The notes beneath the pieces are model-generated. The model was given only the letters and a program-made list of their open reading frames with translations. It was not told the DNA's origin and did no database searches. The position numbers and the translations under genes are program-made. A DNA stretch of 64,000 nt from assembly GCA_009841045.1 (NCBI GenBank), contig VXMO01000043.1, forward strand, positions 58,670 through 122,669, written 5' to 3'. This DNA is from Dehalococcoidia bacterium (lineage in GTDB: Bacteria > Chloroflexota > Dehalococcoidia > UBA6926). This document shows positions 3,998 through 31,943 of this stretch, piece by piece; the stretch's first letter is position 1; the number at the start of each line of letters is the position of its first letter.

Positions 3998-5176
3998 GTG
4001 AATGACGATCTACCATATTGGATTGCGTTCCAGCGCGTCAGTAGGCTCGGCCGGGTCAGATTTGGACATCTCGAGTCGCATTTTCCAACTCTGAAAGACG
4101 CGTGGCACGCATCAGAGTCTGACTTGCGAGCCACTCGCCTTGACGGGCGGACGGTGGACGAAATCCTCAAAACGCGCGCCGACCTCGACCCTGATGACGA
4201 GCTTGAGAGACTGCACCGTCATCGCGTCAGCGCCTACACCTGGCACGATGAGCGCTACCCTGCGCGCCTCCGCCAGATCCATGACATGCCCCCCGTCCTC
4301 TACGTCAAGGGAGAACTCAAACCGGAGGATGAACTCTCACTGGCCGTCGTTGGAACCCGCAAGGCCACGCCATACGGCCGCGAGGTCACCCGTGAATTCG
4401 TCAGAGACCTCGTGCAGGCAGGGCTCACCATTGCCAGCGGACTTGCCACCGGCATAGACTCAACGGCTCATTACGCCACCCTGCAGAATCGGGGCAGAAC
4501 GATCGCCGTCCTCGGCAGCGGTGTTGACATCATCTATCCCGCGCAGAATCGCAAGATGGCGGCGGAGATCGTGGAGAACGGCGCTCTCATCAGCGACTAC
4601 CCAATCGGCACGCCACCCATGAAAGAGAACTTCCCTCGCCGCAACCGCATCATGAGCGGCATCAGCCTTGGTTGCCTCGTCATTGAGGGGAATGAGAAGA
4701 GCGGCGCGCTGATCACTGCCCGCCAGGCTCTAGAACAGAATCGGGAGGTCTTTGCCGTCCCCGGCAGCGCCCTCAGTGAGCGCAGTCGCGGCCCCAACCT
4801 CCTCATTCAGGGCGGCGAGGCCAAGCTGGTGCTGACCTCGGAGGACATCCTGCAGGAACTCAACCTGTCCCAGGAGGATCGGCAGCTAAATTTGCCCTCG
4901 ACCTCCGAGCCTGTCGACGAAGAACAGGCCGCCGTCCTCCGTGTCCTCAGCCGTTCCCCTATCCATATTGATGAGATTTATCGCGCTTCCGGAATGTCCA
5001 TGCCGGAAGTGTCCAGTACCCTTACAATGCTTGAACTGAACGATCTCGTAAGACAGGTAGGCGGGATGCACTACGTCTTGACACGAGAGGCACATGCGAT
5101 TTACGAATCTCACAGAGGAAACAACGCTGGCGGAGAACAGCCCGAGACCAAAGCGGCCGAGAATCAGATCACTTAA
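3998..5176 (+). CDS. dprA: DNA processing protein A (Smf/DprA)
   Basis: Rossmann-like DprA core (LAVVGTRKATPYGRE...GLATGIDSTAHYATL...AVLGSGVDIIYP...FPRRNRIMSGISLGCLVIEGNEKSGALITA). GTG start at 3998, after the tRNA genes. The track ORF from 3683 runs through the tRNA. Confidence 0.8.
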   Translation: MNDDLPYWIAFQRVSRLGRVRFGHLESHFPTLKDAWHASESDLRATRLDGRTVDEILKTRADLDPDDELERLHRHRVSAYTWHDERYPARLRQIHDMPPVLYVKGELKPEDELSLAVVGTRKATPYGREVTREFVRDLVQAGLTIASGLATGIDSTAHYATLQNRGRTIAVLGSGVDIIYPAQNRKMAAEIVENGALISDYPIGTPPMKENFPRRNRIMSGISLGCLVIEGNEKSGALITARQALEQNREVFAVPGSALSERSRGPNLLIQGGEAKLVLTSEDILQELNLSQEDRQLNLPSTSEPVDEEQAAVLRVLSRSPIHIDEIYRASGMSMPEVSSTLTMLELNDLVRQVGGMHYVLTREAHAIYESHRGNNAGGEQPETKAAENQIT

Positions 5177-7483: not shown

Positions 7484-7492
7484 CCCACTCTT

Positions 7493-7588
7493 GTCATTCC
7501 TAGCGCAGCCGAGGAATCTAGAGCCTCACTTGCGCCGCCCAACCCGGTAACGCCACTCCCCGCTCACCCTGAGCCTGCCGAAGGGTGT
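7493..7588. repeat. Composite S + P-fragment + L palindromic repeat units
   Basis: gtcattcctagcgcagccgaggaatc ... ccggtaacgccactcccc ... gctcaccctgagcctgccgaaggg. Same family as the array at 22903-23700. Confidence 0.5.
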
Positions 7589-19161: not shown

Positions 19162-19245
19162 GTCATTCCCGTGCGTGACACGGGAATCCAGTGCGGCGCA
19201 CAGCGCCGCCTCTCCCTTGATGGGGGAGGGTTAGCGCGTCGTGGA
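19162..19245. repeat. V-type palindromic repeat unit plus adjacent hairpin
   Basis: gtcattcccgtgcgtgacacgggaatccagtgcggcgcacagcgccgcctc, followed by CTCCC-TTGATGG-GGGAG. Same family as the 22903-23700 array. Confidence 0.5.
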
Positions 19246-21149: not shown

Positions 21150-22901
21150 TTGAGTGCAGGCTGCATGAGTCAAATTCGCTACGAACCTGAAGAAAACTGC
21201 CCGCCGTTAACAGCGGTAACCGCAGCTTTACAGATACTCATACCCAACACTATCAGCCTCGTTCTGCTGACGGCGCTGGTAGTGCGCGCAGCCGGCGAAT
21301 CCGATGCCTACCTCTCTTGGGTCACCTTTACCGCCCTCGTCGTCACCGGCGCCGGCATGATCCTGCAGACGCTGCGATTGCGTCATCTGGGCGCTGGCCG
21401 GCTTGTTGTCGCGAACTTCAATGTGCCTTTCCTGGCCGTGTGCGCTCTGGCGCTCTCCGTGGGCGGACCCGGATTGCTGGCCAGTCTGGTGGTGGCGTCA
21501 ACCCTCATTCAGGCCGTCCTGACTTTTCGTCTCGCCTCTCTCCGCCTCATCTTCACACAGACAGTGAGCGGAATCGTCGTCATGCTCGTGGCGATATCGG
21601 CCATGCCATTCATCATCGGCAGAGTGGTCACACCGCCGGAAGGCGAGTCAACCCTGGTGTTCCTTGCGCCGGGCCTGGCCGCCCTGGCTGTCGGCGTTCT
21701 CATCGCCCTGCAGGACAGGCCCGTGTGGCGCATGTGGATCCTCACAATCACCGTCGCAGTCGGAATGCTGGTCGCCGTGCCTCTGGGCTTCTATGACACG
21801 AACCCCATCGCCGAGGCCCCCTGGGTGAGCCTGCCTCTCTACCCATGGCCTGCCCTGGATATCGCCTTCAACGCCGATTTCTGGACCCTCCTGCCGGTCT
21901 TCGTACTCGTGAATCTCACCGGATTTATGAAGGTAGTGGGCGACCTGTCTGTCATCTATCGCGCCTCCTACCGCCGGCAATCCGCCGTTGACTTTCGCGC
22001 GGTTCAGGGAGGCCTGAATGTCTACGGCATCGGCACCTTTGTGTCCGGCCTCCTGGGGACCCTGCCTGTCGCCGCTCCATGGTCGTCCACTGCCGTGTAT
22101 ATCGGCTTCATCGGCGTTGCGGCCAGAAATGTTGGACTGTACCTGGGTGTGCTGACCATCATCGCCGCCTTCTTTTCCAAGTTCCTTGCCGTCATTGTCG
22201 CCATTCCCAGCCCCGTCGTCAGCGCGGTATACATCATCATCTTTGCCATGCTCTTTGTGGAAGGGGCCAAAACCGTCTTCACCGGACAGATTGACCAGAA
22301 AAAGGCCGCCATCACCGGCGTCTCTATGGTGATGGGCTTGTCTGCGGTGGCATTGAGCCGCCTCTTCGAGGGCAACGTCGGCCATCTTGTCAGCAACCCT
22401 ATTGTCGTCGGCGGCGCGGTTGCCATCGCCATGACACTGATCGCCCAGATGCCGCGTCTACGCGCGAGCACACTGCGGATCGACTTGTCTCCGGCCTCCC
22501 CGGCCGCTGTCGATGAATTCCTCGGCAGGTTCGCGGACAAACAGTCGTGGACAGAGGAGGGGGCGAACCGGCTGCGTCTTGTCGGAGAAGAAGCCATCCT
22601 CAGCCTGCTCGAATCCGGAAAGGAAGGCGCCTCCCCACAGAAGCGTTCGCTGGTCGCTACAATCAGCCCCGACGGCGCTTCCGCCGAGCTTGAGATTATC
22701 GTCGCCTCCAACGACGCCATCCAGGGCAACATTGAGGATCGCATGGCCTATCTCGGGCAGGATCAGGCGCTGGAAGACGAGCAGGAACTGTCCGTCCGCA
22801 TCCTGCGCCACTACGCCTCATCCGTGCAGCACCGCCAGTACTACGGCATCGACATCGTCAACTGCCGCGTCACAGATAACCAGCGAGAACGCGTCCGCTA
22901 A
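21150..22901 (+). CDS. NCS2 (xanthine/uracil permease) family transporter with ~150-aa C-terminal cytoplasmic extension
   Basis: Resembles XanQ/UraA (YGIGTFVSGLLGTLP...AARNVGLY, IPSPVVSAVYIIIFAMLFVEGAKTV). About 12 predicted TM segments. Confidence 0.65.
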   Translation: MSAGCMSQIRYEPEENCPPLTAVTAALQILIPNTISLVLLTALVVRAAGESDAYLSWVTFTALVVTGAGMILQTLRLRHLGAGRLVVANFNVPFLAVCALALSVGGPGLLASLVVASTLIQAVLTFRLASLRLIFTQTVSGIVVMLVAISAMPFIIGRVVTPPEGESTLVFLAPGLAALAVGVLIALQDRPVWRMWILTITVAVGMLVAVPLGFYDTNPIAEAPWVSLPLYPWPALDIAFNADFWTLLPVFVLVNLTGFMKVVGDLSVIYRASYRRQSAVDFRAVQGGLNVYGIGTFVSGLLGTLPVAAPWSSTAVYIGFIGVAARNVGLYLGVLTIIAAFFSKFLAVIVAIPSPVVSAVYIIIFAMLFVEGAKTVFTGQIDQKKAAITGVSMVMGLSAVALSRLFEGNVGHLVSNPIVVGGAVAIAMTLIAQMPRLRASTLRIDLSPASPAAVDEFLGRFADKQSWTEEGANRLRLVGEEAILSLLESGKEGASPQKRSLVATISPDGASAELEIIVASNDAIQGNIEDRMAYLGQDQALEDEQELSVRILRHYASSVQHRQYYGIDIVNCRVTDNQRERVR

Positions 22902-22902
22902 T

Positions 22903-23700
22903 CCTCCCATGTCATTCCGAGCGGAGCGCAGCGGAGTCGAGGAATCCAAAGACTCAATTGCGCCACTCAACCCCGTAACCGCACTCCCCTCATTCCTGCG
23001 AAAGCAGGAATCCATCGGGACTCCTCACCGTCATTCCCGTGAACGCGGGAATCCAGTGCTGCGCGCAACGCCTCTCATGTCATTCCGAGCGCAGCCGAGG
23101 AATCCAAAGACCCACGTACGCCACTCTACTCCGTAACCACACTCCCCTCATTCCTGCGAAAGCGGGAATCCAGTGCGGCGCGCCAGCGCCGTCTCTCATG
23201 TCATTCTGAGCGCAACGAAGAATCCAAAAACTCCAATCCTCCGCCGAAGCCGGAACGCGGCTGCCAAACTGCACTGGCCAGACAATCTGGAACACGAACC
23301 GAGAGCCGTAACGCAGTTACCCGCTCGCCCTGAGCCTGTCGAAGGGTGAGCACCCCCCTCCGTCATTCCCGTGAACGCGGGAATCCAGTGCTGCGCGCAA
23401 CGCCTCTCATGTCATTCTGAGCGCAGCGAAGAATCCAAAGCCTCAATTGCGCCCCCCAACCCCGTAACCGCACTCCCCTCATTCCTGCGAATGCAGGAAT
23501 CCATCGGGACTACCTCACCTTTGGTGGGGGAGGAGTAAGGTGGGGCAACACAACCCCCGCTCGCCCTGAGCCTGTCGAAGGGTGAACCCCAATCCGTCAT
23601 TCCCGCGAAAGCATGCCCCGTACCCCGATACGGGGCGGGAACCCAGTGCGGCGCGCAGCGCCGCCTCTCATGTCATTCTGAGCGCAGCCGAGGAATCAGT
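22903..23700. repeat. ~800-bp mosaic array of small palindromic repeat units (REP/BIME-like), four unit types
   Basis: Interleaved unit types: S (gtcattcYgagcgcagcgaRgaatccaaagac), P (ccgtaaccgcactcccctcattcctgcgaaagcaggaatcc), V (gtcattcccgtgaacgcgggaatccagtgcKgcgcgcaacgcctc) and L (cgctcgccctgagcctgtcgaagggtga). Each carries an internal hairpin. Spacing is irregular with two unique inserts of ~90 nt and ~50 nt. No coding potential. Confidence 0.8.
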
Positions 23701-24130
23701 GCATTCTGCAATCGGCAAGCAGTTTATCTGCTCTACGAGACATAGGGCAAAGCATGTCGATTCTACTCGGCTGTCGGAAAGCGCTTACTTGTCTCCTCTA
23801 TAACATCCGGTAGGGTACATCCGTGATTACACGACGCTACTCTGGGTGGCTTGATTGGATACCGCTCTCGGATATCTCGCAATGATCCCGGTGTGAGTGG
23901 AATTCTGAACTCGACCCATGTTCCGTATCGGCGGACTGTGATTATGTGCCCCTTAAGGTTCCGCCTGTCTTCATTCTGATGGAGACGTGGGGTCTCTACA
24001 TGTGACCGGTGTCGTTCTCGCAGAAGAATCGATGGTCGACCATGGTGCCAACAGAAGACCTTTGGGTGCTTTCCGCTAATCACAACATTCCGCAAATCAT
24101 CCGCAGCAATGGGAGCGAGGGTCTGCCCTA

Positions 24131-25000
24131 CTACACTGCAAGATCAAATGGCAGATCACTGATGTCACGCAGTCGGTTCCCTGCAACCATGGCTTCCAAC
24201 ATCTCGGACTGATCTGCGAGGCTTGGTTCGGATGCACAGACTTTCCGTAGCTCACCGAGTGCAAAATGATATACGCAGTCCAAATCCCCTGTTCCAAGCG
24301 CTAGAGATGCTATTCGCATCGGCAAGGGTTCTGCAGTGACAGCAACAATGTGGGGCAAATTACCTTTCCGATTGCGAATCAGATTCAGGGCCTCAGTTCG
24401 AGTGTTCTGTGATCGGTCGCTCCGGATTGTCCACTTGCATGAAATGCTGGCATGCAATAAAGGGGTTTCAGGGCTCATGTTTCCCTGTATGAAAGGGGTA
24501 AGCGTGGCCACCTCGTCTTGGGAAAGGAAATCTCCTCCAGAGTCTACTTCTCCCTTAGCAACAGGTTGCCGCGCTACGACGATATCAGGAGTGACTACGT
24601 AGCCATGGCCTAGGGCTGAGGCCAGCGCGTGGTTCTCGTTGACCAAGCTCTCTATCGCCTCAAGGTGGGCGTACTGGACGAAATTGGATATTTTTGTCTG
24701 GCCAACCTTATAAGTCCATTGGCCGGGGCGTAAGTGTGCGAGCGAATCAAATGCAGTTCGGATGAATTCGCAGGTCAGGCCTTCAAATCGTGACCCCGCA
24801 GTCTGTCCAGAGATCTGCTGTGCGCCACGTTGTTGTCGAAGCCCAAGTTCTTCTACAAGGCCGTTTCCAATACGGATGCTCGACTGACTACTGCCATCAG
24901 CGAAGTTGGGGAACCGTCTGTTGTTGCGTACTGAGAACCGCAGAATTTGAGAGCCAACCATGCGGTGGTAATCTCGCCGCATAGACACCAATCTTGTCAT
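24131..25000 (-). CDS. Type II restriction endonuclease, NgoMIV/Cfr10I-like
   Basis: Immediately downstream of the methyltransferase in the same operon, inside a low-GC island. Atypical active-site arrangement: PD139 (TPDIVV), S-C-K189 (HASISCKWTIRSDR), E203. By recollection this matches the Cfr10I/NgoMIV/Bse634I variant of the PD-(D/E)XK fold. Confidence 0.6.
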   Translation of the reverse strand: MTRLVSMRRDYHRMVGSQILRFSVRNNRRFPNFADGSSQSSIRIGNGLVEELGLRQQRGAQQISGQTAGSRFEGLTCEFIRTAFDSLAHLRPGQWTYKVGQTKISNFVQYAHLEAIESLVNENHALASALGHGYVVTPDIVVARQPVAKGEVDSGGDFLSQDEVATLTPFIQGNMSPETPLLHASISCKWTIRSDRSQNTRTEALNLIRNRKGNLPHIVAVTAEPLPMRIASLALGTGDLDCVYHFALGELRKVCASEPSLADQSEMLEAMVAGNRLRDISDLPFDLAV

Positions 25001-25011
25001 TTCGCTACGGC

Positions 25012-25902
25012 CTATCCACTCCTGACTAAGCGAGCAAGCGTCGAAGTTTCGAGCCGACTCTGTGCCAACTCAACATAGTCGGGATTAATTTCCATCAGGA
25101 TTGCACTTCGGTCTAGTTCTGCCGCCGCAACACCGGTAGTTCCAGAACCGGCAAATGGGTCGAGTATTATATCCCCAGGTCGACTACCCAGCAGAATGCA
25201 ACGCTTCGCGAGTTCTCTCGGAAACGCGGCAGGGTGTCCTCCTGACGTAGTGTCGGGACCAAGAATCCAATAGTTTCTAAGGTTGGCTCCACTCTCCTCA
25301 CGAAATCCACTGTTGTCGTAGTAGTAATGAGCTGACTTCGCAAAGAGGAATACATCCTCAGTGGCATTTGACGGTCGGTTCTTCACGCTCTCTGGCATAG
25401 GTGCCCTCTTCACCCACGTAATTCTGGATCGCAGTATCCAGCCATCTTCTTGAAGGGCAAAGGCTACACGCCATGGAATCCCCATCAGGTCTCTGTCTTT
25501 CAATCCCCATGTGGAGGGCACTCGCAAGTTTCTTTTCTGGATATCTTTCTTAGTATTGGCCACCTGAGCGTTAGGACCGTGCCGCCCAACGCCTCCGTTA
25601 CGTGCATATCCGTCACCGATGTTGAGCCAGAGAGTTCCGTCATCAGACAAGGCGCGCCGAACTTTTCGAAAAAGATGAACGAGATCGTCCACGTACTGTT
25701 GAGGAGAGCTTTCAGCTCCGAATTGCTCGTCGTGCCCGTAGTCCCTTAGTCCCCAGTAAGGTGGGGACGTAACACAGGATTGAACGGATGCGGGTGCCAA
25801 ATCGTCAAGCAAGTGTTGGGCGTCGCCAAGGAGAATCTCCACCGTCTTCGGTACAGGGAGGCGACCTGCTTTGAGGTCATCCCTAATCATCTCTTTCCCC
25901 AC
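25012..25902 (-). CDS. DNA amino-methyltransferase (N4-cytosine or N6-adenine), beta class
   Basis: Motif IV TSPPYW near the N-terminus and motif I LDPFAGSGTTGVAA near the C-terminus (beta-class order). An SPPY motif favours m4C-type enzymes. Confidence 0.85.
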   Translation of the reverse strand: MGKEMIRDDLKAGRLPVPKTVEILLGDAQHLLDDLAPASVQSCVTSPPYWGLRDYGHDEQFGAESSPQQYVDDLVHLFRKVRRALSDDGTLWLNIGDGYARNGGVGRHGPNAQVANTKKDIQKRNLRVPSTWGLKDRDLMGIPWRVAFALQEDGWILRSRITWVKRAPMPESVKNRPSNATEDVFLFAKSAHYYYDNSGFREESGANLRNYWILGPDTTSGGHPAAFPRELAKRCILLGSRPGDIILDPFAGSGTTGVAAAELDRSAILMEINPDYVELAQSRLETSTLARLVRSG

Positions 25903-26124
25903 TTTCCCGCGCCGTCACCCAACAATTGAGAATCCTGTAGTGACCCCAATAGATATAGTGGCACAACAGCGCCGCTGATTCGCGGACGGCATAGTCTTCT
26001 GGGCTAAAAGGATTCTCGGTCATCAAAGTCTAGCCTAACATCCCCGATGCTCTAAATGTCTTTAGGCCTGCCACTATCATTCCCACGCAGACCGGAATCC
26101 ATCCTTCTACCCCCAAAACCCTAA

Positions 26125-26160
26125 CGGGGCGACCTCAGAAAGGCCGCCCCGCTCTCTTGC
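26125..26160 (-). terminator. GC-rich hairpin downstream of rpoD (candidate terminator, no U-tract)
   Basis: GGGGCGaCC-tcagaaa-GGcCGCCCC, located ~60 nt past the rpoD stop. Confidence 0.25.
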
Positions 26161-26216
26161 CGGAACGTGGAACGCCAACTCCATTGGCCGAACCACACCG
26201 ATCGCGAACTTTACAA

Positions 26217-27320
26217 TCAATCCTCGATGTAGCTCTCCAACCGCTCGCGATTCCGCTGCAGCCGCAGGTTCTTCATCGCGCCGGCCTGGATCTGCCGCAC
26301 ACGCTCCCGCGTCAGGCTCAGCATGTCACCGATCTCACGCAGCGTGTACTCCTTGCCGTCCATGATCCCGAACCGCAGCTCCAGCACCAGGCGCTCACGC
26401 GGCGACAGCGACGCCAGCACCGCCGCGATGCGCTCCCGCAGCATCGTCTGCGCCACCATGTCGATGGGCGACTCCGCCTCATCCTGAGCCACGAAGTCCG
26501 CCAGCGTCGCGCCGTCTTCGCCCACGGGCGCGTCGATGGACGCGGGTTGCTGCGCCAGGGAGATCAGTTGCTCCACCTTCTCCAGCGGAATCTCCGTCTC
26601 CTTCGCCAGCTCCTCAGGCGTCGCCTCACGGCCGAACTGCTGGAGCAGCCGATGCCGCGCGCGATCCACCTTCGCGGACAACTCGCCCACGTGTACCGGC
26701 AGGCGGATGCTGCTCCCCTGCTCAGACACGCCGCGGGCGATGGCCTGGCGGATCCACCACGTCGCGTACGTCGAGAACCGGAACCCGCGCCGATGGTCGA
26801 ACCGGTCCACCGCCTTCAGCAGGCCGATGTTGCCCTCCTGGATCAGATCGAACAGGGTCAATCCCCTGCCCTGGTACCGCTTGGCGATGCTGACCACAAG
26901 GCGGAGATTCGCCTCCGTCATGGACTTGCGGGCCTCTTCGCCCGCCTTGACCGTCTTCAGCAATTCACGACGCTCGGCGGCGCTCATCGTGTCCGCGCCG
27001 GCAAGGCGCATGGACGCGCGGCGTCCCTCATCCATGAGCATGCCGAGCTCAGTCTCCTGCTGCGGCGTCAACAGCTTGCGGCGGCCGATGTCCTGCAGGT
27101 AACCCCGTAGAGGATCATTCAGGTTCTCCGTGGAGCCGCTGTCGAACTCGTCAACCTCTGCCGCGCCCGCGGAAGTCGCCGACTCATCCTGCGCATCGTC
27201 GAGGCCGAGGACATCCACGGAGGTCTCATCCGCCTCCATAGGGACGTCTGCGGAACCCGACTTGCGCCGGGCCTCGTCCTCCGCGATCACGGCTCTCGCT
27301 TCGTCCGTTATCGCCTTCAT
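26217..27320 (-). CDS. sigA: RNA polymerase sigma factor, primary-type (sigma-70 family)
   Basis: Regions 1.2-4 present. Hallmarks TYATWWIRQAI (region 2.4), IADYLG-like region 3, and a region 4 HTH (LTLREIGDMLSLTRERVRQI). Confidence 0.95.
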   Translation of the reverse strand: MKAITDEARAVIAEDEARRKSGSADVPMEADETSVDVLGLDDAQDESATSAGAAEVDEFDSGSTENLNDPLRGYLQDIGRRKLLTPQQETELGMLMDEGRRASMRLAGADTMSAAERRELLKTVKAGEEARKSMTEANLRLVVSIAKRYQGRGLTLFDLIQEGNIGLLKAVDRFDHRRGFRFSTYATWWIRQAIARGVSEQGSSIRLPVHVGELSAKVDRARHRLLQQFGREATPEELAKETEIPLEKVEQLISLAQQPASIDAPVGEDGATLADFVAQDEAESPIDMVAQTMLRERIAAVLASLSPRERLVLELRFGIMDGKEYTLREIGDMLSLTRERVRQIQAGAMKNLRLQRNRERLESYIED

Positions 27321-27641
27321 CTGCGCACCTCCTTGTGTTGGTTCCGACCGATCACGCGCCTGTCAAACCCAACACACCCCTCCCGGTTTCCGCAAAGGGA
27401 TTGGCTAACAGCATAGACCTGCTGCCACGCTTGTCAATCTCTCGGTATCCGATGGTGTTTGCGTCTCGCATTATTTCTTGCTGCTGTTCGTACACTTGAT
27501 GCCCTCACTTGCTATAACGCTTTTGTCACTAACCAGGAAAGCACCCGACCGCTCGTTTCGAGGGAGCAGGCTATATGCGACAATTGTTTCTGCGCCTATG
27601 GCACGCCGCTAAACCGAATTGGAACACGGAGGATCTCACCA

Positions 27642-28781
27642 ATGCAGGATAACCCCCGTGCGCTGGAAATACTGGAGACGCTCTGCAGACAGCCCGCCAC
27701 GTCGTACTTCGAGGACAACGTCTCCCGCGAAGTTGAGCGTATGCTCACAGATGCCTCAATCCCCTGGGAGCAGGACGACTACGGCAACATCATCGCCCGC
27801 CTAACACGACGGAACGAATCGGACCCAATGCCGTCGCGACCCGTCGCCCTCGTCGCCCATATGGACCACCCGGGATTCGATGTTATCAATGTCGATGGAC
27901 GTCGGCTGACCCTCAAGATGCTCGGCCGGGTCTCCGATGTCATCTACGAACAGCAGGTGGATCTCGTCGTCCACTGCGCCGACGGCTCATCATGCGCAGC
28001 CCGCACAACCGGGCAGGACGGCGACATGGAATCGCGCGTCCTCTATGCAGATTTAACCCAGCAAAACGACCTTGTTTTGCCCGCTTTTGCCGTCTTTGAC
28101 CTCGTAGATTGTGAATTCCGTGACAATACCGTTTTTGCGCGTGCCCTGGACGATCTCGCCGGTTGCGCCGCCACTTTAAGTGTTATGGAAACTCTCGCCG
28201 AGGAAAATGGACCGGTTGACGTAATCGGCGTATTCACTCGTGCAGAGGAGATTGGCCTCATTGGAGCGCGCCTATTGGCCGCCACTGGCTCTCTTCCAAA
28301 GGAAACGCTCGTCATCTCCATAGAATCCTCCAGAACGCTCCCCGGCGCAGAACAGGGCAACGGCCCCGTCATCCGCGTCGGCGACGCGCTTTCCACCTTT
28401 TCACAATCCGCAGAAGAAATCCTCCAAACCGCCCGAGTGACGCTACAACGCAGAGATCCACCTATTCCGGTTCAAAGGCAGCTCATGTCCGGCGGTGTCT
28501 GTGAAGCATCAGTCTTTCTCGCGCACGGCTATGACTCCACCGGCGTCGCATTCCCACTAGCTCACTATCACAATGGATTCGGCGAAGACTCCATTCAAGC
28601 TGAAAACATCACGGTCAGTGACTTCCTGGGAGGTGTGGAACTCCTCCTGGAGGCGTCCCGCCCCATACACGTTCCAGATCAAGAGACGCCCGGCGGCGCC
28701 CAATCTCTCTATGAGCGACTCCGCCAGGCGCCGGAGGAAGAAGGAAGCCGGCTTCGTTCAATCGCCCAAAGGGCCGGATGA
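27642..28781 (+). CDS. M42-family (FrvX/deblocking aminopeptidase-like) metallopeptidase
   Basis: AHMDHPGF and RAEEIGLIGAR motifs correspond to M42 metal-binding motifs. ATG at 27642 with a GGAGG RBS. The upstream part of the track ORF lacks homology. Confidence 0.65.
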   Translation: MQDNPRALEILETLCRQPATSYFEDNVSREVERMLTDASIPWEQDDYGNIIARLTRRNESDPMPSRPVALVAHMDHPGFDVINVDGRRLTLKMLGRVSDVIYEQQVDLVVHCADGSSCAARTTGQDGDMESRVLYADLTQQNDLVLPAFAVFDLVDCEFRDNTVFARALDDLAGCAATLSVMETLAEENGPVDVIGVFTRAEEIGLIGARLLAATGSLPKETLVISIESSRTLPGAEQGNGPVIRVGDALSTFSQSAEEILQTARVTLQRRDPPIPVQRQLMSGGVCEASVFLAHGYDSTGVAFPLAHYHNGFGEDSIQAENITVSDFLGGVELLLEASRPIHVPDQETPGGAQSLYERLRQAPEEEGSRLRSIAQRAG

Positions 28782-28864
28782 TAAGCAGCCAACAAGTGCA
28801 ATCCTGTCGCAGTCACTATGTCACATTGTGATTTCGTAGACTACGATAAGGGCAGGAACCAAGC

Positions 28865-29905
28865 ATGCTAAGGCAAGTCTGGCTTTATGGGCGAATCCTC
28901 ATTGGCGTAGCCCTTGGAGTGGGGGTTGCCTTCATTATTGTTCGTGAGGTTCAGTGGACCGAGTTGCTGAATCAACTCGCAGCGTTCAATTGGTTCCTGA
29001 TGATTCCAGTTATGGGCGTCGTCGTTGCCAGTAACACCGTTCGAGCGCTTAGGTGGAGAATGCTCTTCCATGGCCGAGCGCCCACTGCAACACTCCTCTT
29101 CTTTGTAGAGAACACCGGCCAGGGCTTGAACAACCTTTCGCCAATTCGTGTCGTCGCAGAACCCATTCAATTTGGTTACATCGCGCTGAGGGAAGGATAT
29201 GAAAGGGGAGCCGTGCTCGCGTCAATCGTCCTCGGGCGTGTGTCGGACCTCGCGATCACACTCGGAAGCCTTGCACTCGGTTTCGCGATATTCGCACCGG
29301 AGGGGGCAGGGTACCTTAGCGTAATCATTCTTGTGCTGGTCGGAATCCTTGTTAGTGTTGCGGTATTGTCCTTGTTTACACACAGGATCACGTGGTTTGA
29401 ACGGTTCCCTGTCGTGCGAACGTATTCAGCGGCGTGGCAGGAGCTCATCGCTCAGCCGGGAAAACTGGCCTCAGTCATGGGTGTAACGCTCGCAACGTGG
29501 ATGACACTAGGACTGGCAGCATATCTGGTGGCGCTGTCAAAGGGGCTAGAGCCGAACAATTCACAGAACCCTGTTGAAATCTACGTCATCATCTATGTAG
29601 TGGTGCTTGGCACGATGACGTTGGGGGCAGTCTTGCCGGGCCTGCCATCCGCCATAGGTCCGTTTGAGGCAGCTGCGGTCGCTTTCCTGGGTTTCTACGG
29701 TGTAGACAAAGAGGTTGCGTTGGCCTTTGGCCTCATCATCCATGCGGCTTTCTTCATTCCACCGATCATTATCGCCCTTGGCACCCTAATCATGTTTGGT
29801 CCTCCGTGGTCGACGACGCATCGGGTGCGGCGTCTCCGCCGCGAGCGGCGCGAAGCTCGAAGATCTTCCGCAGCCAGAAGGGTAGCGCAAGAAGGAGACC
29901 TATAA
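28865..29905 (+). CDS. UPF0104 / lysylphosphatidylglycerol-synthase-TM-like (flippase-like) membrane protein
   Basis: Eight predicted TM helices. The N-terminal pattern (RILIGVALGVGVAFIIVREVQW...RALRWRML) matches the LPG_synthase_TM family. Arg-rich C-terminal tail. Confidence 0.5.
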   Translation: MLRQVWLYGRILIGVALGVGVAFIIVREVQWTELLNQLAAFNWFLMIPVMGVVVASNTVRALRWRMLFHGRAPTATLLFFVENTGQGLNNLSPIRVVAEPIQFGYIALREGYERGAVLASIVLGRVSDLAITLGSLALGFAIFAPEGAGYLSVIILVLVGILVSVAVLSLFTHRITWFERFPVVRTYSAAWQELIAQPGKLASVMGVTLATWMTLGLAAYLVALSKGLEPNNSQNPVEIYVIIYVVVLGTMTLGAVLPGLPSAIGPFEAAAVAFLGFYGVDKEVALAFGLIIHAAFFIPPIIIALGTLIMFGPPWSTTHRVRRLRRERREARRSSAARRVAQEGDL

Positions 29906-30464
29906 GCACGCCTCCATACAGATACCCGGCATCCTCGATAGCTATCAGGTCGGGCATCTGAATGTCCGTGAAAACTGAAATCGCGGTAATGCCAAATGCA
30001 ATGGCGATTGTAATCCCGCCTGTCCACCCCATGTTCTTCGTCATGAGCAGCATTGGAAGACCAACGAATCCGGCCACAACAGTCGGCCCAAGCATCATTC
30101 CGGCAACCCCGCCGAAAGCAGACGCCAGGCCTGCGCCCCCTCTGAATTTCAGAAACACTGAATACTGATGCCCCCAAAGAGCGCCGGCCGCTGCAATCAC
30201 CGCTCCGGTTGGGCCAAGATCAAAGAACCTGTCGGCAACCAGAACTGGCAAGAGCCCTTTGAGAATATCTACGATGGCGACGAAGACCCCTACACGGCGA
30301 TCAACCTCCCGGAACACATTGGCTGCCCCGGCATTTCCTGTTCCCAGATCACGAACATCAACCCCTGCGACAAGCCGTGACATGATAACTGCCGTTGGAA
30401 GGGAACCAGCCAAGTAAGCCGCAACAAGGATGCCCGCCAGTCCCATCACTTCACCCATCGTCAT
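29790..30464 (-). CDS. plsY: Glycerol-3-phosphate acyltransferase PlsY
   Basis: PlsY signature GTGNAGAANV and 5-6 TM helices. The 3' end overlaps the convergent UPF0104 gene by 116 nt. Confidence 0.8.
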   Translation of the reverse strand: MTMGEVMGLAGILVAAYLAGSLPTAVIMSRLVAGVDVRDLGTGNAGAANVFREVDRRVGVFVAIVDILKGLLPVLVADRFFDLGPTGAVIAAAGALWGHQYSVFLKFRGGAGLASAFGGVAGMMLGPTVVAGFVGLPMLLMTKNMGWTGGITIAIAFGITAISVFTDIQMPDLIAIEDAGYLYGGVLIGLLLALPFWLRKIFELRAARGGDAAPDASSTTEDQT

Positions 30465-30674
30465 TTATTCTCCTCCGGAAATGTCAGTTGCAGAGATTCA
30501 TGCGCTTGTAGATCCCACCACTAAGCGTAGCGCACAGGCTTATTGGACGAATGGAGTAAGATTGCTACTGAAGTGGCGAAGGCTCAAATACCAACCCACT
30601 GCGGCAGCTTTGTCCTGCCGCCGAACCGGAAGCGAGCAGGGTAAGGCTGCGATCACTCGGAATCGGGGCGAAGG

Positions 30675-31943
30675 ATGGGCAACAGCCTCTTGGGATCGGT
30701 TGGTCTGCGGCTAGCCATTGCCGTTGTCGCGCTGGCCGCTGGTGTCTACCTCATTCAGGGCATATCCGACCTGTTCAGTGTCCTATTTGATGTCCTGATC
30801 CTCATATTTCTCGCATGGATACTGTCTGCCGCGGTGCGTCGTCTGGCAAACTTTGTTGAGATTTACGTTCCGAACCCGGCATGGGCGGCAGTCCCGCTCG
30901 CCTACCTCATCATATTGCTTCCTGTTGTCGCACTGATCGGACTCCTGGTTCCGCTTACCATATCCCAGACTGTCACCCTCTCCGAAGACCTGCCTGATTT
31001 TGCCGTCAGGCTTTCGGGTTTCATGTCGTCAATCAATGAGTTCTTTGATTCGCTCCGGGCAGCCGGCGGCGGTGAAGAAACCGCCACAACCGATCCACTT
31101 CTTGCCTTTAGCTCCACTGCGAGTGCGTGGGTGCAAGACAACGCGCTGGGAATCGTAGGCAGTACAACCAACATCTTTATTCAGACCATCTTCTGCATCT
31201 CGTTGTCGTTCTATATGACCATTGAGCGGGAGCAACTCGGAAGGTTGTTTTACAGGCTCTTGCCGGTCGAATACCACGAACGCGCCTCCGTGGTTGTAGC
31301 TCATCTCGACAGAACATTTTTCTCGTACCTGAAGGGCATCTCTATCGTTGTTGTGCTTTATTCAGCAGCTATCACGATAACCATGTTGGCTGCGGGACTG
31401 CCCTTTGCCTTGCCGATTGGAATCACAGCAGGCCTTATTCAGCTGGTCCCAATCATCGGCGAAGTCGCCGCTATCGGGATACCGACAACTATTGCATTGC
31501 TAACGGGGTCGGTTACGACGGCAATTATGGTGGCAGTTGCCCTGATTTCATGGAGCCTCTTCATGAATAACTTTGTTCTTCCACGTGTCTACGGCAGGGC
31601 TGTTCGTATGCCCGGCTTCTTTGTGTTGCTTGCCGTGGTTGTCGGTACGCGATTCGGAGGGCCCTGGGGAGCCATGCTCGCCGTACCCGTGGCCGGTTTC
31701 ATCTACTCCTTAATCTTTGCGTGGGGAGAGTTGAGACAAGACCACGATGCTGAACCAGGCGAGCCTTCAACGGAGGGGGAAACGGCGACCAACGAAAAAA
31801 CCACTCCCGAAGAAGAGGCACTTGAATCCTCAGATGCGCCCGACGAGACCGGCAACGGCCGCGTCCGTGTAAACGGCGACGGGACAAGTCCGGGAACGAC
31901 GGAGCGAATCCTGGCCAGTATTCGCAGCATCATTTCTCGCTAG
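30675..31943 (+). CDS. AI-2E family transporter (PerM/UPF0118)
   Basis: Typical AI-2E architecture (FSYLKGISIVVVLYSAAITI...GLIQLVPIIGEVAA...). Eight TM segments plus a hydrophilic C-terminal tail. Confidence 0.7.
   Translation: MGNSLLGSVGLRLAIAVVALAAGVYLIQGISDLFSVLFDVLILIFLAWILSAAVRRLANFVEIYVPNPAWAAVPLAYLIILLPVVALIGLLVPLTISQTVTLSEDLPDFAVRLSGFMSSINEFFDSLRAAGGGEETATTDPLLAFSSTASAWVQDNALGIVGSTTNIFIQTIFCISLSFYMTIEREQLGRLFYRLLPVEYHERASVVVAHLDRTFFSYLKGISIVVVLYSAAITITMLAAGLPFALPIGITAGLIQLVPIIGEVAAIGIPTTIALLTGSVTTAIMVAVALISWSLFMNNFVLPRVYGRAVRMPGFFVLLAVVVGTRFGGPWGAMLAVPVAGFIYSLIFAWGELRQDHDAEPGEPSTEGETATNEKTTPEEEALESSDAPDETGNGRVRVNGDGTSPGTTERILASIRSIISR

Follow-up and report, generated by a model that had tools for sequence, protein, structure and literature searches.

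We analysed a stretch of 64,000 nucleotides from a Dehalococcoidia bacterium (contig VXMO01000043.1, hereafter the window), in which the spacer between a gene for an NCS2/xanthine-uracil permease and rpoD contains three co-oriented open reading frames (ORFs) of 296, 289 and 110 amino acids, all on the minus strand. Judging by comparisons of their sequences and loci, the first two very probably form a horizontally acquired Type II restriction-modification (R-M) cassette, in which an endonuclease of the NgoMIV family is paired with a beta-class methylase and the predicted recognition site is GCCGGC. The stop codon of the methylase gene is separated from the endonuclease gene by 11 nt. The spacer and its neighbours are organised as follows (positions of the window):

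21150-22901, plus strand: gene of the NCS2/xanthine-uracil permease, whose homologues in relatives carry PF00860
22901-23700: array of short palindromic repeats resembling repetitive extragenic palindromes (REP) or miniature inverted-repeat transposable elements (MITE), 800 bp, from the permease stop to the island
23671-26043: inserted low-GC island, delimited by its homology with the related contig L085 and absent from the related contigs L083 and L084
23763-24095, minus strand: 110-aa ORF with a TTG start, 35 nt past the endonuclease stop
24131-25000, minus strand: gene of the NgoMIV-family endonuclease, 289 aa, predicted site G/CCGGC
25012-25890, minus strand: methyltransferase gene, 292 aa from an ATG; the open frame reaches a GTG at 25902, which gives 296 aa
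25891-26043, minus strand: non-coding leader upstream of the cassette, a putative promoter or operator region
26077-26103: lone repeat unit between the island and rpoD, a D2-family member with 78% identity to the reference
26110-26153, minus strand: terminator-like hairpin of rpoD (GGGGCGGCC...GGTCGCCCC, then a T-rich tail), seen by direct reading
26217-27320, minus strand: rpoD, the right-hand neighbour of the spacer

The composition of the island sets it apart from the rest of the window. A prediction made earlier from the letters of the window (hereafter the original prediction) had described about 2.4 kb of low GC between the permease and rpoD, and this is borne out: the GC content of positions 23671-26043 is 0.523, against 0.598±0.018 in the other 2373-bp stretches. 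This makes the island essentially the lowest-GC stretch of its length in the window, about 4 standard deviations under the mean (the next non-overlapping minimum is 0.546). The 32-mer that had been quoted to illustrate the low GC lies at 24686-24717. A comparison with the coding background agrees: the GC content at third codon positions (GC3) is close to 0.51 in the three ORFs of the island (0.508, 0.517 and 0.505), whereas it averages 0.691±0.071 in the 46 other long ORFs, with a minimum of 0.558. The GC3 of the cassette is the lowest among the 49 ORFs. The GC content elsewhere is not uniform, being about 0.55 between 28 and 32 kb. The genes found beyond rpoD at 27459-31943 (an M42 peptidase, an LPG-synthase-like protein and their neighbours) also have a GC content of about 0.55 and a GC3 of about 0.60, and they are syntenic in all relatives. 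Low GC alone is thus no sign of foreign DNA in this region.

Endonuclease, methylase and predicted site

On its profile and sequence matches, the 289-aa protein is a full-length member of the NgoMIV family of PD-(D/E)XK endonucleases. It matches the Pfam profile NgoMIV_restric (PF09015) with an E-value of 5.6e-99 and 331 bits (cut-off 23.2), over residues 24-289 of the protein and positions 13-275 of the 275 of the profile. It also matches the REase_II model of PADLOC (1.2e-80) and the sequence of the NgoMIV crystal structures (1fiu/4abt, 2.7e-78), where residues 8-289 align on residues 9-286. The identity with the NgoMIV product read from the chromosome of Neisseria gonorrhoeae is 48%. The matches to PF09015 and 1fiu therefore identify as an endonuclease the 289-aa protein that the original prediction had placed 11 nt after the methylase. 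The GenBank entry of this exact protein, on a 140-kb contig of a Dehalococcoidia metagenome-assembled genome (MAG), is MYD36496.1 and has the generic label restriction endonuclease.

The functional residues of NgoMIV are all found in the window enzyme. The catalytic residues E73, D139, K189 and E203 align with E70, D140, K187 and E201 of NgoMIV. They include the permuted PD active site, written P138-D139...K189-X13-E203 in the window enzyme and P139-D140, K187, E201 in NgoMIV. A permuted PD-K-X12-13-(E/D) motif defines the active site of the CCGG family of restriction enzymes (PMC5389614, PMC3413111), and the arrangement PD139...SCK189...E203 that had been named as the hallmark of a subgroup of these enzymes is present and agrees with the published motif (PMC5389614). 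The R-(D/E)R motif, which reads CCGG, is R193-S194-D195-R196, identical to R191-S192-D193-R194 of NgoMIV. The residues D34, Q63, S192 and R227, which give NgoMIV its strict readout of the outer G:C pairs (PMC4652773, PMC5389614), are kept as D35, Q66, S194 and R229. The roles of all these residues in catalysis and in the readout of CCGG and of the outer G:C are documented for NgoMIV (PMC3413111, PMC4652773, PMC5389614).

Because all these functional residues are conserved, the predicted site is G/CCGGC and not the degenerate RCCGGY. The enzyme is predicted to be specifically NgoMIV-like rather than Cfr10I/Bse634I-like: the original assignment to the Cfr10I/NgoMIV/Bse634I subgroup stands for the CCGG family as a whole, and the conservation of D34 and R227 narrows it to NgoMIV. 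A search of the PDB sequences with the endonuclease left the chains of Cfr10I, Bse634I and SgrAI all without a match at E≤1. By homology with NgoMIV, the enzyme would cleave G/CCGGC in a Mg2+-dependent manner and would probably act as a Type IIF homotetramer on two sites.

The 296-aa ORF matches the Pfam profile N6_N4_Mtase (PF01555) with 2.6e-49 and 168.6 bits (cut-off 26.7), and has no match to PF00145. It matches the MTase_II model of PADLOC with 5e-90. In the 296-aa frame, TSPPYW starts at residue 45 (SPPY at 46) and DPFAGSGTTG at residue 248 (FAGSGTT at 250); motif IV (SPPY) is thus N-terminal to motif I, which is the order of the beta class. The class of amino-methyltransferase that had been proposed is consequently upheld by the PF01555 match, but the length of 296 aa is less likely than 292 aa. 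Translation probably begins at the ATG at 25890, which gives the length found in database entries and in the gene calls of relatives. The GenBank entry of the exact protein (MYD36497.1) has 292 aa and the generic label site-specific DNA-methyltransferase. Its best PDB match is a putative methylase of Thermus (2zie, 1.4e-25, residues 24-284), followed by cytosine-N4 methyltransferases.

We predict from these sequences that the methylase places N4-methylcytosine (m4C) in GCCGGC. This rests on three elements: the SPPY motif, a signature of N4-cytosine methyltransferases where N6-adenine methyltransferases have DPPY (PMC8885841); a predicted site that lacks adenine; and a homologue, 71% identical, that is labelled cytosine-N4-specific by JGI. 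The target-recognition region of the methylase does not align with those of characterised enzymes, so its target base and site are read from the partner endonuclease only.

A different pairing of activities would fit part of these data. The endonuclease might cut another site, e.g., RCCGGY like Cfr10I and Bse634I or another CCGG-containing sequence, or the methylase might modify N6-adenine in another motif. The 48% identity with NgoMIV leaves room for such a change, specificity can shift within the CCGG family (PMC3413111), and GCCGGC is not clearly avoided in the window (counts below). However, the equivalents of D34, R227, Q63 and S192 are all kept (PMC4652773, PMC5389614), the match to NgoMIV_restric is full-length, Cfr10I and Bse634I are not retrieved from the PDB, and the methylase has SPPY and not DPPY (PMC8885841). 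We regard another specificity as unlikely.

The spacer in related genomes

Relatives were taken as the closest RpoD homologues together with the contigs that encode them, and their spacers were compared with that of the window by blastn. A separate scan of genome contigs with RpoD was of no use for synteny, as the sigma factors that it retrieved all came from other phyla and had 51% identity or less. The contig L083 (1.87 Mb, RpoD 95% identical) has an empty site: the rpoD terminator hairpin is followed by about 35 bp and then by the 3' end of the permease gene, in a clean junction without remnants, R-M genes or repeats. The spacer of L084 (RpoD 93% identical) consists of about 1.1 kb of repeats and lacks the R-M genes. 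The spacer of L085, whose flanks are 97.2-97.3% identical to those of the window at the nucleotide level, is occupied: positions 26043-23671 of the window match positions 9329-11691 of L085 at 92.2%. The 110-aa ORF is part of this match, and the repeat arrays to either side are shorter. A more distant contig, L001 (flanks 82.8% identical in nucleotides), has the order rpoD, an HTH_3 gene, the methylase-endonuclease pair (78.3% nucleotide identity) and aspS. L001 has no permease and dCache genes at this locus, and the cassette adjoins aspS.

The comparison with L001 delimits a homologous unit that runs from a leader block upstream of the methylase to the stop codon of the endonuclease. This block, GGGATGTTAGGCTAGACTTTGATGA (about 26020-26046), is conserved in the alignments of the window, L085 and L001, and is a putative promoter or operator. 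On the rpoD side, the hairpin at 26110-26153 has counterparts of 85-89% identity in L083, L084 and L085 and forms the limit of the conserved host sequence ahead of the insertion. Between the rpoD stop and this hairpin, at about 26165-26200, the window has about 31 extra nt (CGGTGTGGTTCGGCCAATGGAGTTGGCGTTC) that are lacking in L083, L084 and L085. The Rfam L31 leader overlaps them with a sub-threshold score (18.5 bits, E=0.95) that is probably due to chance. The HTH_3 gene of L001 (positions 4715-4933, 72 aa) lies between rpoD and the methylase and is absent from the window; from a reading of its sequence, we take it to resemble a HigA-type antitoxin. Among the ORFs of the window, none with a helix-turn-helix (HTH) lies between rpoD and the methylase, and the 110-aa ORF has no HTH match; no controller gene was found.

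The array at 22901-23700 starts directly after the permease stop and comprises nine families of direct repeats. It bounds the island on the left, and the unit at 26077-26103 bounds it on the right, as had been noted from the sequence. The array varies from one strain to the next: L083 has none, L084 carries about 1.1 kb of it, L085 about 0.25 plus 0.07 kb and the window 0.8 kb. Units of the same family occur elsewhere in the window, at 2721, 3850, 7492-7587, 19181-19214, 45805 and 52716. The palindromic REP/MITE-like units, such as TCATTCCNGCGAANGCNGGAATCCA, CATGTCATTCYGAGCGCAGC and CCCGCTCGCCCTGAGCCTGTCGAAGGGTGA, form a genome-wide family scattered in intergenic spacers, and identical motifs are found on an unrelated contig, L086.

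The empty site of L083, the repeats-only site of L084 and the deviant GC3 support the horizontal acquisition of the island into a repeat-rich spacer, as the original prediction had proposed. The divergence of the cassette tells more about its history. Between the window and L085, the synonymous divergence is 0.34 for the methylase and 0.20 for the endonuclease, compared with 0.15 for rpoD, 0.08 for the M42 peptidase and 0.08 for the permease. Between the window and L001, it is 1.32 and 2.37 for the two cassette genes, compared with 0.39 for rpoD and 0.63 for the M42 peptidase. The cassette has thus diverged 2-6 times more than the flanking genes in both comparisons, and its alleles are older than the divergence of the genomes at this locus. 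At the protein level, the methylase is 96.9% (L085) and 91.8% (L001) identical to that of the window, and the endonuclease 99.3% and 82.4%. The discordance between the two genes in these comparisons suggests recombination between cassette alleles.

These divergences bear on a simpler scenario, in which the cassette was ancestral at the rpoD locus of this Dehalococcoidia clade and was lost in the lineages of L083 and L084. This would account for the presence of the pair at the same place, with a shared leader block, in the more distant L001. Yet the methylase and the endonuclease exceed rpoD and the M42 peptidase in synonymous divergence against L001 and likewise against L085, the cassette has the lowest GC3 of the window, the junction of L083 is clean, and the pair is spread across phyla. 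We find vertical descent with losses quite unlikely; the sequence data favour repeated gain or allelic exchange at a hot-spot.

Both genes of the window cassette evolve under strong purifying selection. The endonucleases of the window and L085 differ by 37 synonymous and 2 non-synonymous changes among 289 residues, a ratio of non-synonymous to synonymous rates (dN/dS) of 0.015; that of the methylase is 0.047. An inactive relic, with an orphan methylase next to a dead endonuclease, is very improbable: no recognisable promoter was found for the cassette, but neither ORF is truncated, all catalytic residues are in place, and only 2 of the 289 endonuclease residues have changed in spite of the 37 synonymous changes.

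Several results weigh against a horizontally acquired cassette specific for GCCGGC, in part on its function and in part on its mode of entry. The avoidance of the predicted site is weak: GCCGGC occurs 31 times in the window, against 41.9±6.8 in shuffles that preserve dinucleotides, and the under-representation that the original prediction had put forward as a check is not demonstrable in 64 kb. A fourth-order Markov model expects 55.5 sites (ratio 0.56, z=-3.3), but GCCGGC ranks only 13th in depletion among the 64 palindromic hexamers and GGCGCC is equally depleted. A scan for consensus sigma-70 promoters gave no site, and a scan for terminators gave only two terminator-like matches at chance level, both inside coding sequence, and no consensus terminator. 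Concerning mobility, no ORF between 21 and 29 kb encodes an integrase or transposase. Searches for att sites, target duplications and terminal repeats at the island borders returned only short direct or inverted repeats at chance level, in the window and in L085. Finally, L085 is a long-read contig of 4x coverage with frameshifted genes, and some of its substitutions may be sequencing errors. Such errors would, on the other hand, raise dN and not lower it.

The island itself has no GCCGGC site, where simple arithmetic from base composition gives an expectation of about 0.7. Under the fourth-order Markov model, several other palindromes are depleted at least as strongly as GCCGGC in the window (observed/expected): GGCGCC (26/50.4), TGCGCA (12/25.1), CGATCG (7/18.0) and CTCGAG (5/13.6). 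Further R-M systems in the genome, or a general avoidance of palindromes, may lie behind this depletion. No tRNA gene lies at the island borders. As no mobility gene is present, homologous recombination through the conserved flanks or the repeats would be the likeliest insertion route.

We retain as very probable the reading of the island as an acquired Type II R-M cassette, whose operation may be sketched as follows. The conserved leader ahead of the methylase gene would presumably drive the transcription of both genes as one unit. The methylase would protect the GCCGGC sites of the host by N4-methylcytosine, and the endonuclease would cut unmethylated G/CCGGC in a Mg2+-dependent reaction, so that the pair would destroy incoming unmodified DNA. 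The cassette would have settled in a spacer that has also been colonised by REP-like repeats and whose content varies between close relatives.

The 110-aa reading frame at the island edge

The third ORF of the island, at 23763-24095, had been noted as lacking a recognisable domain, and searches of Pfam, NCBIfam, PADLOC, PHROG and PDB indeed gave no match. It is probably a real small gene, to judge from its pattern of substitution. In L085 it is intact, free of insertions and deletions and 91% identical. Read in this frame, 16 of its 26 substitutions leave the amino acid unchanged (binomial P=7e-5; dN/dS 0.18), against dN/dS values of 1.3-1.6 in the two alternative frames. Its GC3 (0.505) is like that of the methylase and endonuclease genes.

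HMMER, run exhaustively on 1.84 billion representative proteins, retrieved a single homologue, P0361, of 113 aa (41% identical, E=3.2e-6). The two proteins share C15, H17-H18, NEDR, EFR-PL and C89-x3-C93. The gene of P0361 has no adjoining R-M genes and lies on the unrelated contig L086 (1-1629, Logan SRR22586459_569039), within a segment of 753 bp whose ends are perfect inverted repeats of 23 nt, GGGACTTATAGCGAATTTTAGCC, at 30-52 and 760-782. The segment is flanked by a 7-8-bp direct repeat, ATCTAAA(G), at 23-30 and 784-791, and it is inserted into a repeat unit that belongs to the family of the window array. With these features, it resembles a miniature mobile element that carries a small gene as cargo. 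The terminal repeat of L086 is absent from the window, and the matches to terminal inverted repeats or target duplications around the 110-aa ORF, in the window and in L085, are at chance level.

Further homologues were sought in several collections. None was found in a metagenome scan with the family alignment, by tblastn against endonuclease loci from metagenomes (80) and viruses (27), or among plasmids and phages. Among the endonuclease loci examined, the islands of the window and L085 are the only ones with the ORF, and L001 and the others lack it; this suggests that it is probably a separate, hitch-hiking module and not a functional part of the R-M system. A structure model has low confidence (pLDDT, the predicted local distance difference test, of 57), and this route yielded nothing.

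Two other candidates for this region were discarded. A repair nuclease like Vsr or DUF559, suggested by a C-W-H-H...DRR pattern, is unsupported: BLASTP against Vsr of Escherichia coli gave E=1.2. The 430 bp that follow the endonuclease gene show no sign of a structured RNA either: Rfam has nothing there, there is no tRNA, and the folding z-scores are +0.20 and -0.12.

Alternatively, the DNA that follows the endonuclease gene may be non-coding and the ORF open only by chance. In favour of this are its TTG start, the lack of an evident ribosome-binding site, an unusual composition rich in arginine and histidine, its absence from the gene calls of the source MAG, the low-confidence model and the lack of family matches given above. 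On the other side, the excess of synonymous changes is specific to its frame, the frame is kept without indels in L085, and a protein of nearly the same length shares its Cys, His-His, NEDR, EFR-PL and C-GC positions. A chance frame is, in our view, improbable.

It is a speculative and decidedly doubtful idea that the 110-aa ORF belongs to an extremely rare, undescribed family of small Cys/His proteins carried by, and perhaps required to move, miniature inverted-repeat-bounded elements that target the REP-like repeats of these genomes. If this were true, the island of the window would be a composite of an R-M cassette and the relic of such an element, and elements of this kind could explain how cassettes land in repeat arrays. 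A small orphan gene with a relative bounded by inverted repeats is in any case an inexpensive starting point for finding what may be a new miniature mobile element.

Distribution, related systems and implications

The methylase-endonuclease pair is found across phyla. There are more than 100 clusters of endonucleases at 61-85% identity and as many methylase clusters, and contigs of equal size recur in both lists in many cases. The homologues come from Chloroflexi, Nitrospira, Gammaproteobacteria, Cyanobacteria (Ca. Synechococcus spongiarum) and Acidobacteria; judging from the names of the homologues, the source of the window is presumably sponge-associated. Six loci with an endonuclease of 63% identity or more were inspected, namely L001, L002, L085, L114, L196 (Nitrospira) and L197 (Gammaproteobacteria), and the methylase lies directly upstream in every one. 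The copies of Nitrospira and Gammaproteobacteria lie in unrelated housekeeping neighbourhoods.

In metagenome loci, the class of the partner methylase tracks the identity of the endonuclease to the window enzyme. Endonucleases at most 50% identical have a C5-methylase partner, those at 50-56% identity have an amino-methylase of about 470 aa with N-terminal motif I, and the closest one, at 65% identity, has a beta-class partner of 290 aa; only endonucleases of about 63% identity or more carry such a partner. The window system is, on these sequence comparisons, part of a common but uncharacterised, presumably m4C-type branch of NgoMIV-type systems.

The closest known system is that of NgoMIV itself in N. 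gonorrhoeae (R.NgoMIV, 1FIU/4ABT, a Type IIF tetramer), with an endonuclease of the same family at 48% identity and the same order of methylase then endonuclease. The two systems differ in the methylase: the gonococcal partner is a 312-aa C5-cytosine methylase (PF00145, 3.6e-81), whereas that of the window is a 292-aa PF01555 protein, so that protection is by 5-methylcytosine (m5C) in the former and is predicted to be by m4C in the latter. A C5-methylase partner is also found next to prophage-like and plasmid copies of NgoMIV-type endonucleases. The gonococcal locus was read directly; a review table that lists M.NgoMIV as m5C (PMC12114051) has obvious errors and was not relied on. One PLSDB entry recorded as a plasmid, NZ_CP119142.1, is 2.17 Mb of N. 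gonorrhoeae, evidently a mislabelled chromosome, and carries a genuine C5-methylase/NgoMIV pair beside purK.

More remote likenesses concern one or the other gene. The tetrameric Cfr10I/Bse634I (R/CCGGY) and SgrAI (CR/CCGGYG) share with the window enzyme the PD-K-X12-13-(E/D) site and the R-(D/E)R readout (PMC3413111, PMC5389614), but lack the outer G:C contacts of the D34/R227 type that it has. The methylase resembles beta-class N4 methyltransferases (M.PvuII 1BOO, TTHA0409-like 2ZIE, the rotifer/bacterial N4CMT 8S9M) in having PF01555, SPPY before FxGxG and a similar size. The PspGI system (CCWGG) gives a precedent for a CCGG-family endonuclease with a putative N4-cytosine methylase (PMC2532716); it differs in its interrupted CCWGG site, its dimeric, nucleotide-flipping enzyme and its Pfam family.

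Both genes were already annotated automatically, in generic terms, in GenBank, and the present assignment changes little for the field. It does indicate that NgoMIV-type endonucleases partner with three classes of methylases, and a GCCGGC enzyme whose sites are protected by m4C might make, with its methylase, a useful pair of reagents. At the sequence level, the locus illustrates cleanly how an R-M cassette enters and leaves a single spacer, with empty, repeats-only and occupied sites in related genomes. R-M genes have been reported to be exchanged laterally among sponge-associated symbionts (PMC8163846), and the greater age of the cassette alleles relative to their flanks fits such exchange.

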